A stretch of DNA of 64,000 bases from a virus, in the IMG/VR virus record IMGVR_UViG_3300044547_000928, positions 3,862-67,861 of that record; one strand, given 5' to 3'. The translations under genes were made by a program, and so were the position numbers. The notes beneath the pieces were generated by a model, which made no database searches, was not told where the DNA came from, and saw only the letters and a list, made by a program, of their open reading frames with translations. Position 1 is the stretch's first letter, and the number at the start of each line of letters is the position of its first letter. This document shows positions 3,346 to 17,329 of the stretch, one piece after another.

Positions 3346-3400
3346 CCCAAGGGAAACGGAGTGCGAAAATAAACCCGAACAATCTGGAACACCATATTCT
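3346..3400. repeat. Three-part dispersed element, copy 1
   Basis: CCCAAGGGAAACGG-N7-AAATAAA-N17-ACCATATTCT. Confidence 0.9.
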
Positions 3401-3581
3401 CAGGGAGCAGGGGTAAGAAAAGATAAATCACTTCCCAGCGGGGGCAGCGCGGGTCTATTTAGCACTAACTCGTGATATATCAGCAAGATAATTTTATTTT
3501 GAGGTTGGTGTTTTGGCAATGTCCCGATAGAATTGAATTATCAAGTTATCAAGAAGAAATAAAAAAAATCTTCTGTACAGG

Positions 3582-3610
3582 TTGCAAAGCCTGCGATAAA
3601 GTGATACAAT
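3582..3610 (+). promoter_or_regulatory. sigma70-type promoter with A-tract UP element
   Basis: TTGCAA-17-TACAAT, TG extension. Confidence 0.85.
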
Positions 3611-3656
3611 AGTATCAGTAAGTAATCAAACAACAAACTAACAAAGGAGCAATAAA

Positions 3657-4697
3657 ATGGGAATGGAAACTACCGAGTGGTACAACACGCAGATTTTGGT
3701 TGGTATGACCGACCAGCGTGGAAATGCGTGGCACTACAAGAAAGAAGCACAAGGCGACGAGCCGAACCATTATGCAGGTGCAATTCCTGTTGAAGATGTA
3801 CAGCGCAGGCTGTTCTCGTGGTCGGCACAAGAAGCCCCAGTCTTCATTCAAGTACCAGCAACAATGGAAGATGCGACAAGCGTTGACGAAAACGGTAATC
3901 CCGTCAAGTTCATCAAGGCTGGAAATCGCAAAGCAATCCTACGAGATGATACAAACGACCTGTTTGAAATCTTCAAAGATGGCTATGCAATCCACCAGTA
4001 CAACGACTGGCTCGTAAAGAACCTCGCAAATCTCGTAGATGATGATTTGGCAATCGGTTCCGCTGGGCTACTCAAAAATGGTGGAGTGGCTTGGGTGTCG
4101 CTTGAAATGCCCGAAAGCATTGAAGTAATTGACGGGTTCAAGGTTCGCCCACACTTGCTTGCAACGACCAGTCATATCGGCACGCTGGCAACGACCTACA
4201 AGAAAGTATCTACTTTCGTGGTCTGCGACAACACGCACTCAATGGCTATGGGCGAAGATGGCGAGCAGTTCAAGGCTCGTCACTCAAAGCACAGCGCACT
4301 CAAAATCCAATCGGCTCGTGATGCGCTAGGCATTATCCACAAAATGACTGATGATGTAATTGCAGAGATTACAAAATTGTCAGAGTGGAAAGTGACTGAT
4401 GAACAGTGGAACACACTGCTCAACCAGTTAGTGCCAGTGCCTACCGACCTAGAGCAAAAGACGGCGATTACTCGTGCAGAGAATAAGCGTTGGGCGTTGA
4501 AAGACCTCTACGCTAACGATATGCGAGTAGCCCCGTGGTCGGGAAGTGCGCTCGGCGTGTTGCAGGCTTACAACACCTACAACCACCACAAGGCTGGAAC
4601 CGACAAGAACCGAGTAGAGCGAAATATGCTCAACGCACTTAGCGGTTCAACTGGTACGGCAGATGCGAAAGTGTTGCAGGCTCTAGCGAGCCTGTAG
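3657..4697 (+). CDS. DUF932 / TIGR03299-like phage-plasmid protein
   Basis: NAWH, SAGLLKNG, LLATTSH.G, VVCDNT and RH motifs typical of the family. Confidence 0.85.
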   Translation: MGMETTEWYNTQILVGMTDQRGNAWHYKKEAQGDEPNHYAGAIPVEDVQRRLFSWSAQEAPVFIQVPATMEDATSVDENGNPVKFIKAGNRKAILRDDTNDLFEIFKDGYAIHQYNDWLVKNLANLVDDDLAIGSAGLLKNGGVAWVSLEMPESIEVIDGFKVRPHLLATTSHIGTLATTYKKVSTFVVCDNTHSMAMGEDGEQFKARHSKHSALKIQSARDALGIIHKMTDDVIAEITKLSEWKVTDEQWNTLLNQLVPVPTDLEQKTAITRAENKRWALKDLYANDMRVAPWSGSALGVLQAYNTYNHHKAGTDKNRVERNMLNALSGSTGTADAKVLQALASL

Positions 4698-4707
4698 CAC
4701 TAGCGGG

Positions 4708-4737
4708 TCGGGCCCGATGGGAAACTGTCGGGCCCGA
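4708..4737 (+). terminator. GAAA-loop hairpin after the DUF932 gene
   Basis: TCGGGCCCGATGG-GAAA-CTGTCGGGCCCGA. Confidence 0.65.
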
Positions 4738-4807
4738 TAGCCCGTCCTAAAATTTAGAAAAAAGTGGCGGGGGTAGGGGCCCGCGAAATAAAATCTTTTA
4801 TTAGAGG

Positions 4808-4836
4808 TTGCTAAACCCCACATAACCTGCTATAAT
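4808..4836 (+). promoter_or_regulatory. sigma70-type promoter
   Basis: TTGCTA-17-TATAAT, TG extension. Confidence 0.85.
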
Positions 4837-4870
4837 ATATACATACCCAATGACAACAAAGGAGAAACTA

Positions 4871-5134
4871 ATGAGAAAACCAAGAATGTACGGCTCACCC
4901 GCAATTCGTGTGGTCTTGACAATGGCGCGCGAGGAGTGGTTCTACGATGTAGTAGAGGCAGTTGAGTTCGTCACCAAGAACTGGAAAGAGGGCACAGAAC
5001 TGAGCGCAAGGGTTCGCAGTGGAAACTACTGGGAACCAGTGTTCACCATCACCAAAGACGGCGAAGCATACGCCTCACCAGTCTATGCAGAGTTGCTCGC
5101 ATCAGCGCCAGTAAAAATGGAGATAGCACTATGA
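4871..5134 (+). CDS. Hypothetical protein
   Basis: ACAAAGGAGA RBS favours ATG 4871. Confidence 0.75.
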   Translation: MRKPRMYGSPAIRVVLTMAREEWFYDVVEAVEFVTKNWKEGTELSARVRSGNYWEPVFTITKDGEAYASPVYAELLASAPVKMEIAL

Positions 5135-5334
5135 GCCACTACGCAGACACACTTATCGGAAAAACAATCGCGAGGGTGCGGAGCCTGGAAGACGAGGAGT
5201 ACGAACAACTCGGTTGGTATAAAAACAGCAACCCAACTGCCGTACTTGAATTCACTGACGACACATACGCTATTGTTATGGCAGACCCCGAAGGTAATGG
5301 CACGGGATTTCTAGACATAGGAGAATACGCATGA
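5131..5334 (+). CDS. Conserved small phage protein (DPEGNG.G motif)
   Basis: GGAG RBS, ATGA overlap. Confidence 0.8.
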   Translation: MSHYADTLIGKTIARVRSLEDEEYEQLGWYKNSNPTAVLEFTDDTYAIVMADPEGNGTGFLDIGEYA

Positions 5335-5486
5335 GCGAATCTTTAGTGAATGCGACTCAACTTGTAGATAAAGCAATACAAAAAATAGCGGGGCAATCAC
5401 TTGTCTCATCTGCAGAAATGACCGACTTACTATTAGACATAAGACTTTGCCTAATGAGTTGCGAAACATCAGTAGAACTGGTATAA
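5331..5486 (+). CDS. Small protein (51 aa), not in the ORF track
   Basis: AGGAGA RBS; MSESLVNATQLVDKAIQKIAGQSLVSSAEMTDLLLDIRL...; stop codon lies in the next -10 box. Confidence 0.65.
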   Translation: MSESLVNATQLVDKAIQKIAGQSLVSSAEMTDLLLDIRLCLMSCETSVELV

Positions 5487-5487
5487 T
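5459..5487 (+). promoter_or_regulatory. sigma70-type promoter
   Basis: TTGCGA-17-TATAAT. Confidence 0.85.
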
Positions 5488-5520
5488 AGAATATAACACA
5501 AACCAACAAAGGAGAAACTA

Positions 5521-16032: not shown

Positions 16033-16045
16033 TTTAGAAAATAGT

Positions 16046-16085
16046 TGCCCCGCGGGTTGCATTGGCTCGCGGGGTATGCTATAAT
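16046..16085 (+). promoter_or_regulatory. Hairpin-promoter cassette
   Basis: TGCCCCGCGGGTT-GCATT-GGCTCGCGGGGTA; TTGCAT-17-TATAAT. Confidence 0.85.
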
Positions 16086-16114
16086 ATATACATAACCTAA
16101 TGGAAGGAAACCAA

Positions 16115-16174
16115 ATGAGACTAATGCTTACCATCGCCCAACTAATCGCGGGACTGCGGGCGGGCAGGTTCTAA
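16115..16174 (+). CDS. 19-aa peptide
   Basis: GGAAGGAAA RBS; MRLMLTIAQLIAGLRAGRF; own promoter. Confidence 0.5.
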   Translation: MRLMLTIAQLIAGLRAGRF

Positions 16175-16557
16175 CCGCCGAGGGAACTGAGCCGAGGAGA
16201 GGCGCGCGGGCTTCGCACTCCAGGGCTCACCCAAGGGCGCACGAGGGCGACGCAGGGCTTCCGCAAGGAGGAGGGCCAGGGCGTTGGCTGGCGTTGGCGT
16301 CCCCGCAGGAGGGGCGCGCGGGCTTCCGCTGGCGTTCAGAAAAAAAACAGAGGGTCGCGGGTCAAGGGCGTTCACGCCAAGGGTTGGCACCAGGGCGCTC
16401 CCAGGGCTTCAGGTGGTGCGCGCAAATAATCGTCCAACTGAGGGCTTATCCGAGGGGGAAGGGTCGCGAGGGTGGCGCAAGGGTGATATGCCGTTGATAT
16501 ATCACGGGAGGAGGGTCGCGAGGGTTGGCGAGGCTCACGCCCCGCCCGCCGTTGGCG

Positions 16558-16671
16558 TCAGTCCACCGCCTTGTAGCAACAATCGAGGCAGTAGCCCTCA
16601 GCGCCCTCAACCTTGTCGTTCAGGCAATCGCTTGCCTCGCACTTATTGTCTATGTCGTGTGTGTTTGTCAT
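16558..16671 (-). CDS. Leaderless Cys-rich micro-protein (37 aa), the only minus-strand gene called in the early region
   Basis: Minus-strand promoter TTGCAT(16706-16701)-17-TATACT, ATG 6 nt later; CEASDC...YCLDCC. Confidence 0.62.
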   Translation of the reverse strand: MTNTHDIDNKCEASDCLNDKVEGAEGYCLDCCYKAVD

Positions 16672-16677
16672 AATAAT

Positions 16678-16758
16678 AGTATAGCACGCTATAGCATACA
16701 ATGCAACTCAAATAAATAATAATTTGGGGTTGCCGTGCGCGACTTAGTGTGCTATAAT
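16678..16758. promoter_or_regulatory. Back-to-back divergent promoters sharing an AT tract
   Basis: Minus TTGCAT-17-TATACT; plus TTGCCG(16730)-17-TATAAT. Confidence 0.8.
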
Positions 16759-16788
16759 AGTATTCTAACCTAGTGAGAGGAAAATACA

Positions 16789-17079
16789 ATGGGCAACTTA
16801 CACGCAGACGGCGCTTGGATAGAATTCACCAAGTGGCGCGACACCTGCATAAACTCAACCAATATCGAGAATGTCTATATGGCAGGCGATACACGCTACA
16901 CCTTGCAACTCTCGCGTAAGCAACAGCGCGACTGCGCGGTGGTGGGCGCGGTGTACCGTGCAATTCACACGGACGCCGAGACGGGCGTTACCCAAGCCGT
17001 CAAGGCAGGCTCATTCCGCATTGAGCCGAACGGCGAGGTGACACGCTACCCAGTGGGGTTGCGCGCGTTACTCCGCTAA
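16789..17079 (+). CDS. Hypothetical protein (GSFRIEPNG.V.R.P motif)
   Basis: GAGAGGA RBS. Confidence 0.8.
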   Translation: MGNLHADGAWIEFTKWRDTCINSTNIENVYMAGDTRYTLQLSRKQQRDCAVVGAVYRAIHTDAETGVTQAVKAGSFRIEPNGEVTRYPVGLRALLR

Positions 17080-17091
17080 ATAAGTGGAAAA

Positions 17092-17137
17092 ATAGTGCGG
17101 GTTGGTGGTTGCAATTACTGCCAACCCGTGCTATAAT
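17092..17137 (+). promoter_or_regulatory. Hairpin-promoter cassette
   Basis: ATAGTGCGGGTTGGTGGT / ACTGCCAACCCGTGCTAT; TTGCAA-17-TATAAT. Confidence 0.85.
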
Positions 17138-17276
17138 ATAAGTATGAGATAGCGCGACAGAGCCCCGCTAAAAAGGCGGCGCGGGGTGCTGGCGTTGGCG
17201 TGAGGGCGCAGAGGGTCGAGCCAAGGGCGCAAGGGTCGAGGGAAACGCTCAAGGGTCGAGGGCAGGGACCAGACCG

Positions 17277-17329
17277 CCCGAGGAACGGAAGCGCGAAATA
17301 AACCCGAACCCAAGGAAACACCATATTCT
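17277..17329. repeat. Three-part dispersed element, copy 5
   Basis: CCCGAGGAACGG-N7-AAATAAA-N17-ACCATATTCT. Confidence 0.9.

Follow-up and report, generated by a model that had tools for sequence, protein, structure and literature searches.

Promoter classes that depend on a phage factor are known from several bacteriophages, among them the middle promoters of T4 (MotA/AsiA), the promoters served by gp28 and gp33/34 in SPO1 and the non-canonical early promoters of the Streptomyces phage phiC31, which come with conserved inverted-repeat operators. Here we describe a three-part intergenic element that recurs in a viral DNA stretch of 64,000 nucleotides (the window; positions 3862-67861 of the contig IMGVR_UViG_3300044547_000928, which is 67,861 bp long, with a CheckV completeness of 52%). 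It is a genuine, conserved and previously undescribed cis-element in a clade of uncultured WhiB-encoding siphoviruses, and is best read as a factor-dependent promoter class. Like the promoters of the phage systems above, it is present in many copies, has a conserved two-block arrangement, is co-oriented with the genes, departs from the host consensus and is restricted to one temporal region, where it stands beside ordinary early promoters and operator palindromes. Unlike them, it is followed by another promoter and not by a gene, it matches none of their consensus motifs as we know them, and genes for a phage sigma factor or for a MotA-like or AsiA-like protein were not found. The motifs of sigma-54, sigma-28/SigD, sigma-32, extracytoplasmic function (ECF) and sporulation sigma factors, T4 late promoters, IHF and T3/T7 were also compared with it by eye; each agrees partly, but departs at a key position or is not matched by some of the copies. 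The stoperators of cluster A mycobacteriophages are asymmetric repressor sites of 13-14 bp found across the whole genome of a temperate phage, whereas the copies described here keep to a single arm, and a search of five records for an integrase (PF00589) gave no match (control, 14/14).

WhiB7 is described as binding both region 4 of SigA and an AT-rich tract next to the -35 hexamer (PMC3905903, PMC10245118). The element shares with WhiB7-dependent SigA promoters a probable actinobacterial host, an A-tract in the -35 region and the WhiB family, here phage-encoded, whose proteins bind sigma region 4 and redirect the polymerase; the promoters presented in those two reports, however, keep good -35 and -10 hexamers with the AT tract just upstream of the -35, whereas here the A-tract replaces the -35. 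The promoter-stem-loop (PeSL) cassettes of T4-type phages, in the descriptions given in PMC2839356 and PMC4122927, resemble the islands in which the element lies: both are small repeated cassettes with hairpins and strong sigma-70-type promoters, set between orphan genes of a plastic early region. PeSLs are described there as promoter plus terminator only, whereas the three-part element is an extra motif, present in seven of about 20 promoter-bearing gaps, and is neither the promoter part nor the stem-loop of its island; moreover, neither mini-circles nor clear element-bounded gene swaps were seen here. Finally, the first-step-transfer repeat regions of T5, as outlined in 10.1101/866236, likewise combine conserved non-coding repeats, palindromes and DnaA boxes 3 bp apart (here at 13157-13177) in the first-expressed part of a large siphovirus, and in T5, as here, the untranslated repeat regions are reported to be better conserved than the surrounding genes. 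There is no sequence similarity between the two, and T5 is described as having three regions with inverted repeats, compared with eight co-oriented asymmetric copies in the present contig. A T5-like identity, our first guess from the dyads and DnaA boxes, was rejected: the gene content does not fit, and PHROGs scans of 16 and 46 window proteins returned no relatives of A1, A2 or dmp.

The window was searched with the pattern AACGG-N7-9-AAATAAA-N15-19-ACCATATTCT. Five matches were obtained, all on the + strand, compared with none in 100 dinucleotide-preserving shuffles; AACGG starts at 3355, 6387, 9225, 13016 and 17284, and the block to which it belongs (block A) at 3346, 6379, 9217, 13008 and 17277. 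The five sites listed in an initial annotation of the window, made from the letters alone, were thus recovered, with the common orientation that it had described, and they are not the only ones. Three further copies lie on the contig upstream of the window, one single and a tandem pair 67 bp apart, which brings the contig (G000) to eight copies, 8/8 on the + strand, with block B starting at contig positions 947, 1014, 3211, 7228, 10260, 13099, 16889 and 21157. The consensus reads (G)CCCRAGG(G)AAACGG, N7-12, AAAATAAA plus a 4-mer, N13, ACCATWTTCT and then a G-rich block. Block A, (G)CCCRAGG(G)AAACGG, has the form CATRGAAACGR in one lineage and is separated from block B by a G+C-rich gap of 7-12 bp. 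Block B is AAAATAAA, directly followed by the 4-mer, the third base of which is always C. Thirteen free bases, frequently ending in TGGAAC, then lead to block C, ACCATWTTCT (ACCATWTTTT in a distant clade), and the G-rich block D (for example GCAGGGGC) follows at a variable distance of 0-10 bp (N4-13 in the shorter form of the consensus). The core of the element has 10-49% G+C and its flanks 64-78%.

The distance between blocks B and C is the most rigid feature. The spacer from AAATAAA to ACCATATTCT is 17 bp in 5/5 window copies, the search having permitted 15-19 bp, and the gap is exactly 17 bp in 8/8 copies of G000 and in 8/8 copies of the related genome G001, which were first located via block C alone. 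The invariant spacer of free sequence proposed in the initial annotation therefore holds for the window and for the whole contig. The first window copy, copy 4 of the eight, spans 3346-3413 (block A 3346-3359, AAATAAA 3367-3373, ACCATATTCT 3391-3400, block D to 3413) and is preceded by a hairpin with a T-run at about 3285-3325, as read from the sequence. Copy 5 spans 6379-6446 (A 6379-6391, B 6399-6405, C 6423-6432, D to 6446), and its block A abuts the stop codon TAG (6376-6378) of the open reading frame (ORF) 6172-6378. In copy 6, at 9217-9283 (A 9217-9229, B 9238-9244, C 9262-9271, D to 9283), the A-B spacer is 8 bp, and by the same kind of reading a hairpin without a T-run lies upstream at about 9171-9205. 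Copy 7 occupies 13008-13078 (A 13008-13020, B 13028-13034, C 13052-13061, D to 13078), and copy 8, the last, 17277-17340 (A 17277-17288, B 17296-17302, C 17320-17329, D to 17340), with three to four additional A-like repeats, (C)AAGGGTCGAGG, at about 17215-17265. All five copies are on the + strand. Literature searches for block C strings returned unrelated primer lists only, and those for intergenic repeats in phage early regions nothing relevant.

The element recurs in relatives at corresponding places. Two genomes, G001 and G004, are colinear with G000 and 70-92% identical to it, and each carries eight copies at the orthologous islands, in gene direction. Four more distant ones (G011-G014) were found through their WhiB gene, independently of the motif, and hold nine (G011, 106 kb), nine (G012, 105 kb), seven (G014) and four (G013) copies, co-oriented and within a single arm of about 20-26 kb. 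Six related uncultured siphoviruses thus carry 4-9 co-oriented copies each, in one 20-30 kb arm of small unknown genes. Within each genome the orientation is uniform for 54/54 copies in eight records (eight each in G000, G001 and G004, one in G002, nine each in G011 and G012, seven in G014 and four in G013), and a backwards control pattern gave no match in the same records. Confinement to the early arm, a test set beforehand in the initial annotation, was verified as well: G002, which begins 4.5 kb before the last island, has one copy there and lacks the element over the next 74 kb, G003, which covers 58.8 kb from the portal gene onward, is free of it, and G011 has no copy between 2.1 and 82.3 kb.

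A scan of metagenome contigs gave 101 stretches, which a crude filter on the flanking blocks reduced to 46 distinct instances, and to 43 after three (L275, L303 and L306) had been dropped by eye; in these 43, blocks B and C and the 17 bp gap were imposed by the pattern, and only flanks and spacers are informative. Scanning 185,579 species-representative bacterial and archaeal genomes gave 42 matches. These were considered as a clue to a host or prophage, but all were judged to be chance; one of them, L438, passed the crude flank filter yet lacks the CCCRAGG and GGGGC blocks. When a scoring matrix was run over 80 WhiB-anchored loci (710,833 bases, both strands), six loci matched, all of this clade. 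The element is absent from a distant relative of 18.8 kb (L156), the DUF932 protein of which is 55% identical, and from both the 160 kb and the 151 kb phage that share a ferredoxin-like gene. The early region of L156 has instead a GTGAC-N5-GTCAC operator joined to a TTGACC-N17-TACTAAA promoter, 12 times, and runs of ACGACCACAC-like repeats. No cultured relative was matched when 6.6 kb was searched at the nucleotide level against 50,697 phage records, and searches with the terminase and DUF932 proteins returned matches that were all below 60% identity, mostly to actinophages. The contig record is classed as linear, without end repeats; a relative's contig runs on through the tail genes (with a tape measure of 1674 residues) into replication genes, and the phage is most likely a siphovirus of about 110-115 kb, a length summed from overlapping pieces of a map that closes on itself. 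As a specific marker, the element can serve to locate early arms of related phages in metagenomes and to establish their orientation.

The element is not periodic. Successive copies are separated by 67, 2197, 4017, 3032, 2839, 3790 and 4268 bp in G000, by 67, 2166, 4017, 3031, 2770, 4840 and 5486 bp in G001, by 73, 2232, 4837, 3105, 3234, 5472 and 5740 bp in G004 and by 1.1 to 6.9 kb in G011. Copy number and order are conserved, whereas the distances vary with gene insertions and deletions, and the spacing (67 bp to 6.9 kb) follows gene content. The rhythm of about 3-4 kb put forward in the initial annotation therefore holds neither for the contig as a whole nor for the relatives; of the two outcomes that it had named as speaking against its reading, namely copies scattered genome-wide directly before ordinary genes and a spacing that differs in relatives, the second is what we found. 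Its suggestion of periodic loading or checkpoint sites is not supported, given the unconserved distances, and the element is no evidence for stepwise DNA entry.

How the element has diverged tells more about what recognizes it. Eight orthologous islands of three genomes (G000, G001 and G004) provide 24 pairwise comparisons, in which the identity between orthologues is 0.98 for block B, 0.92 for block C, 0.58 for the 13 bp spacer and 0.49 for the 4-mer. Among the copies within a genome the 4-mer reaches 0.88, compared with 0.49 between orthologues, and the N13 spacer shows the reverse (0.42 within a genome, 0.58 between orthologues). The 4-mer is CCCG in G000, ATCA in 8/8 copies of G001 and ACCT in 8/8 copies of G004. 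Between G000 and G001 it is less conserved than the spacer (12/32 versus 70/104, Fisher p = 0.004), whereas 4-mer and spacer do not differ in this way in the remaining two pairs (p = 0.55 and 0.84). Gene conversion is an awkward explanation, since four bases would have been homogenized at eight dispersed sites with the neighbouring bases left untouched. A 4-mer that is uniform genome-wide, next to a spacer that follows descent, points to recognition by a protein on DNA, and the pattern of the 4-mer suggests co-evolution with a trans-acting recognition protein, for which this is what one would expect from the sequences. The islands of G011 have an unrelated palindrome, GTGAAAGTnCGnACTTTCAC, in the place of the operator, yet retain the order of the element and the sigma-70-type promoters.

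Signals of a structured RNA were sought and are nearly absent. Rfam 15 gave no match at the gathering score over the whole window on both strands, and the window contains no tRNA or transfer-messenger RNA (tmRNA) gene. The five window copies fold no better than shuffled sequences (z from -0.32 to +0.36), and inspection of 22 copies revealed no consistent pairing between blocks. The third island, which lies before the window (L001 1530-1600, contig 3226-3296), is different: GGAACACCAT forms a hairpin there with ATGTGGTGTT further downstream, behind which comes a U-run (-26.8 kcal/mol, z = -5.0). This pairing is kept in G001 and G004 despite sequence changes, and the inverted complement of block C occurs once per genome. 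The hairpin looks like a terminator for upstream transcripts that borrows block C as one of its arms. Action of the element as RNA is unlikely. With a B-C spacer of fixed length (17 bp) but free sequence, neither RNA structure in the five window copies nor an Rfam match, and a 4-mer that varies by genome and not by island, the proposal of the initial annotation that the element is recognized by protein on DNA has gained support.

All eight copies of G000 are intergenic, between genes of the same strand. The first 21 kb of the contig form a one-directional array of small genes, nearly all without known relatives; the known families in it are DUF932, DUF1281_C, a KTSC domain and a WhiB-family protein. 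The usual order within an island is the upstream stop codon, a hairpin in some islands, the element, variable dyads, TGATATATCA with an extra half-site, a sigma-70-type promoter and the next gene. A hairpin, with or without a T-run, stands upstream of the element in 4/7 G000 islands; in two islands the element lies at, or at most 20 nucleotides past, the upstream stop codon, with no hairpin between; and in the last island the ordinary promoter is found upstream of the element instead of downstream. The islands are regulatory regions and not dead space, and the element reads as the conserved centre of a regulatory cassette, about 250 bp long, that is repeated between one gene block of the early arm and the next.

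The ordinary promoters were located by a scan of window 1-20000 for sites with at least 9/12 matches to the -35 and -10 hexamers, which listed 46 promoter-like sites compared with 20.2 expected, the strong ones nearly all on the + strand. About 20 strong sigma-70-type promoters of the form TTGCAA-N17-TGnTATAAT are spread across the early array and are predicted to drive it. One of them (TTGCAA-N17-TACAAT, 3582-3610, + strand) lies downstream of copy 4 and heads the DUF932 gene at 3657-4697; another (TTGCTA-N17-TATAAT, 6541-6569, + strand) lies downstream of copy 5; that of the last island, at 17109-17137 on the + strand, is upstream of copy 8. By our own reading of the sequence, weaker candidates follow the elements at 9217 and 13008. 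The initial annotation had stated that none of the elements leads straight into a gene. It needs correcting in one respect: the islands are not devoid of promoters.

The dyads that it had seen behind the elements are real. The operator-like palindrome TGATATATCA has ten exact copies in the window versus 0.05 expected, and 6/10 lie within about 130 bp downstream of 4/5 window elements: at 3473-3482, with a further half-site 4 nucleotides downstream, and at 6510-6519, 9357-9366, 17355-17364, 17392-17401 and 17419-17428. The other exact copies are at 10251, 13933, 16495 and 19388. Behind copy 7, the stretch 13085-13177 combines a CGAACATATGTTCG palindrome (13085-13098), a CTAACCCTCAAGTAGAGGTTTAG dyad and two DnaA boxes that face each other 3 bp apart (TTATCCACA-gcc-TGTGGATAA, 13157-13165 and 13169-13177). 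Directly past the last element lies an origin-like cluster (17345-17560) with three TGATATATCA copies, two TTATCCACA boxes (17454 and 17473, the DnaA boxes of this island occupying 17454-17481), four CCGTCTC repeats (17496-17539) and a TATATATA stretch. It is followed by a short leftward operon and then by the genes for the small and large terminase subunits, portal, protease-scaffold and major head protein.

What, then, would a protein do at such an element? Asymmetry, agreement with gene orientation, the rigid 17 bp gap, the AT-rich core, the position at the head of gene blocks and the tandem pair at the start of the arm point to recognition by a polymerase. We tentatively favour an activator-dependent, non-canonical promoter class for the host RNA polymerase; the promoter activity, start site, timing and factor proposed in the following are what we infer, whereas the anatomy, number and orientation of the copies, their confinement and conservation, the lack of RNA structure and the co-variation of the 4-mer are what the sequences show. 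The rigid pair AAAATAAA-N17-ACCATWTTCT would constitute the promoter, with CATWTT in block C serving as a -10 hexamer that keeps the two key positions (A at position 2 and T at position 6), the A-tract in the place of the -35 hexamer and the CCCRAGGGAAACGG block, at about -60 to -47, as a putative activator site. Transcription would start in the G-rich block, a few bases downstream of block C. Such a promoter would be silent until a phage-made factor is present, because it has no usable -35. Once active, it would start a second, rightward wave of transcription, which would reach each gene block after crossing its operator palindrome and ordinary early promoter and which at the last copy would enter the origin-like region.

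CATATT or CATTTT keeps A2 and T6 in all 24 copies of G000, G001 and G004, with C at position 1 and no TGn extension. The string ATATTCT is common to block C and the -10 region (TATATTCT) of the promoter predicted before the phage WhiB gene. The canonical -35 test failed: the hexamer 17 bp upstream of CATWTT is TAAACC, TAAAAT or TAAAAC, with two to three of six matches, and the A-tract in its place argues that a helper is needed. Several observations weigh against this interpretation of the element. The first -10 position of CATWTT is a C, and the promoter scan described above lists none of its 46 sites at any element. The distance of the G-rich block from block C varies, as one would not expect of a fixed start site. 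The strong terminator-like hairpin of the third island has block C as its 5' arm, so that block C is part of an RNA coming from upstream there. That blocks B and C do not vary among the 43 metagenome instances follows from the pattern with which these were sought. Three RNA-library runs hold 8-11% of the sampled words, and the data that they give on window 3200-13190 are relatives' contigs only, without starts, ends or strand, and provide no transcript 5' end. Of the original proposal, an activator- or phage-sigma-dependent promoter class, the part that stands is a promoter for an activated or modified polymerase, still the best reading, whereas no phage sigma was found; a dedicated non-coding RNA or primer as its product is unsupported, as in most islands the transcript would cross the palindrome and the ordinary promoter into the next genes.

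The early arm itself encodes a WhiB-family transcription factor (2065-2439, + strand; PF02467, 72.6 bits versus a cut-off of 23.6), which may be the trans-acting partner. Its promoter (TGGACA-N17-TATATT, 2028-2056) ends 8 nucleotides before the ATG, and hence the mRNA looks leaderless. The stretch by which the replication genes are linked to the beginning of the early arm, seen in the contig L448 (G009, from the same sample as G001), encodes on the - strand an AdoMet (S-adenosylmethionine)-decarboxylase-like gene (1-378), a second WhiB-like gene of 131 residues (380-775) and a sigma-region-4-like protein of 94 residues (1444-1728). The latter is sub-threshold: TIGR02937 gives 16.8 and 15.7 bits versus a cut-off of 42.9 (region 4), and Pfam Sigma70_r4_2 23.4 versus 25.7. 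Otherwise, no phage sigma was detected: PF04542 matched 0/5 records (control, 10/14 genomes) and TIGR02937 gave sub-threshold hits only, in searches that very divergent sigmas would escape. A T7-type polymerase (PF00940) had no match in five records covering most of the map, nor in the control genomes. The membrane protein encoded by ORF 18004-18810, with two helices and a coiled coil, was rejected as a candidate factor; in a protein atlas, ORF 20057-20812 had no usable match and ORF 5521-6144 matched no family but its own, DUF1281_C.

The WhiB proteins are the obvious candidates for a helper, and they fit loosely. A phage WhiB made early, alone or with the 94-residue protein, could dock on region 4 of SigA and swap its -35 recognition for AAAATAAA plus the 4-mer, and so activate eight to nine otherwise silent promoters, both along the early arm and at the origin of replication; in this specific form we consider the scheme unlikely. 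Neither phage WhiB carries the RGRP AT-hook of WhiB7, and the early WhiB is identical in G000 and G001 while their 4-mers differ (CCCG versus ATCA), both of which count against it; the early WhiB cannot be what sets the 4-mer of each genome. As host we consider a low-G+C freshwater actinobacterium most likely, since reports of WhiB-like proteins are confined to Actinobacteria and their phages (PMC6282962, PMC10202952) and the G+C content of the contig, 46%, is near the 46.5% given for a 'Ca. Planktophila' isolate (PMC10202952). WhiB genes are described as an actinophage marker, several of which are carried by many freshwater phages (PMC10914622, PMC10202952). Isolates of phages that infect 'Ca. 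Planktophila' are by now available (PMC10202952), and metatranscriptome data on whiB-encoding phages of Rotsee Lake are mentioned in PMC10914622. The portions of these two reports that we draw on name no DNA target for any phage WhiB, and no search aimed at such a target was made. Should the WhiB version be true, the WhiB genes by which freshwater actinophages are recognized would for the first time have a defined regulon and a DNA target, and the sigma appropriation of T4 would have a counterpart in actinobacteria. The clade provides a sharply defined, multi-copy cis-element in what is presumably its first-regulated region, with ordinary promoters and operators alongside as internal controls, so that the temporal programme of an abundant uncultured phage group becomes directly testable.

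The same architecture could also serve a phage protein that binds in a polar manner without any start of transcription, as a roadblock or insulator at which transcription units end or are kept apart, in the manner of the oriented stoperators, or as a barrier shielding the heavily transcribed early arm from the leftward replication fork of the origin-like region. Such a site, which we consider possible but rather unlikely, would account for the asymmetry and strict co-orientation of 54/54 copies, for their position where gene blocks end (in two islands immediately at the stop codon, without a further terminator), for a 4-mer that changes genome by genome and for the location of all copies on one side of the origin-like cluster. 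However, 4/7 G000 islands already possess a hairpin just upstream, and two blocks with a rigid 17 bp gap and an AT-rich core are more typical of polymerase recognition. Maintenance by a lysogenic repressor is unlikely with no integrase in the five records, and no candidate binding protein has been identified.

The strand-specific nicks of T5, and oriF and oriG of T4, where a promoter and a G-rich non-template strand feed replication, raise the question of a DNA-processing site, either a T5-type nick or a priming/R-loop site. A single strand is used, G-runs occur on the + strand downstream of every copy, and the last copy directly precedes DnaA boxes and iterons. In addition, paired DnaA boxes with 3 bp between them recall the untranslated repeats of the first-step-transfer DNA of T5 as these are presented in 10.1101/866236. 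We nevertheless regard this explanation as improbable: the PHROGs scans gave no relatives of A1, A2 or dmp, and eight priming sites within 21 kb with none in the other 90 kb would be unusual. Should the element prove to be a roadblock or a nick site instead of a promoter, it would still be a new oriented architectural signal.

A role chiefly as a recombination substrate, the core of mobile PeSL-like cassettes that shuffle orphan-gene blocks, with no recognition function of its own, seems quite improbable. The islands are indeed paralogous cassettes with hairpin, element, dyads, palindrome and promoter in the same order, flanking small unknown genes, and two RNA-library contigs of relatives join one copy to another (window 9233 to 3388, and 6368 to 3343), but these joints may be assembly effects at repeats. 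When gene-block swaps at the cassettes were looked for, the breaks in homology between G000 and G001/G004 were not concentrated at the elements. Drift or gene conversion would leave unexplained 17 fixed bases around 13 diverging ones, and a 4-mer that is homogenized next to a spacer that is not. Last, an RNA signal, for example for antitermination or processing in read-through transcripts, is very improbable: the element probably is transcribed from upstream in the two islands where it follows a gene without a terminator, and block C of the third island pairs with a downstream complement and a U-run in three genomes, but this inverted complement is limited to one island per genome, and the Rfam search, the folding of the five window copies and the inspection of 22 copies gave no signal.

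Several further features of the early arm deserve mention. The heptamer GCGCGGG occurs ten times on the + strand and never on the - strand, always in the early arm (window 1-17200; contig 3176-21040), commonly 7-10 nucleotides ahead of block A or of TGATATATCA, and is thus an oriented motif. At 9804-9831, 10573-10604 and 11170-11201 three strong promoters have their -35 hexamer TTGCAA in a loop closed by a G+C-rich hairpin, and on the - strand these hairpins are followed by a T-run, so that each site combines a promoter with an antisense terminator, in a T4 PeSL-like manner. Eight GAAC-N4-GTTC palindromes are present in the window (5033, 13086, 13711, 13904, 19324, 19422, 34310 and 43048). This motif has the form of the SOS box in Gram-positive bacteria and actinobacteria, and LexA might bind to it. 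Two of the palindromes belong to a second origin-like cluster (19324-19433), in which one TGATATATCA copy lies between them and two DnaA boxes are also found. Window 13700-17100 has a G+C content of 50-55%, compared with about 46% elsewhere, ambiguous gene calls on both strands and patchy homology to G001 and G004. ORF 18004-18810 (+ strand, 268 residues), whose two membrane helices are predicted and whose coiled-coil tail is variable, has 25 metagenome relatives and belongs to no known family. Finally, a small gene before the window (contig 741-923) ends right at the first element, and its product (MPIYVY...GGGFYKTSNR) is presumably FmdB-like, without the usual cysteines.

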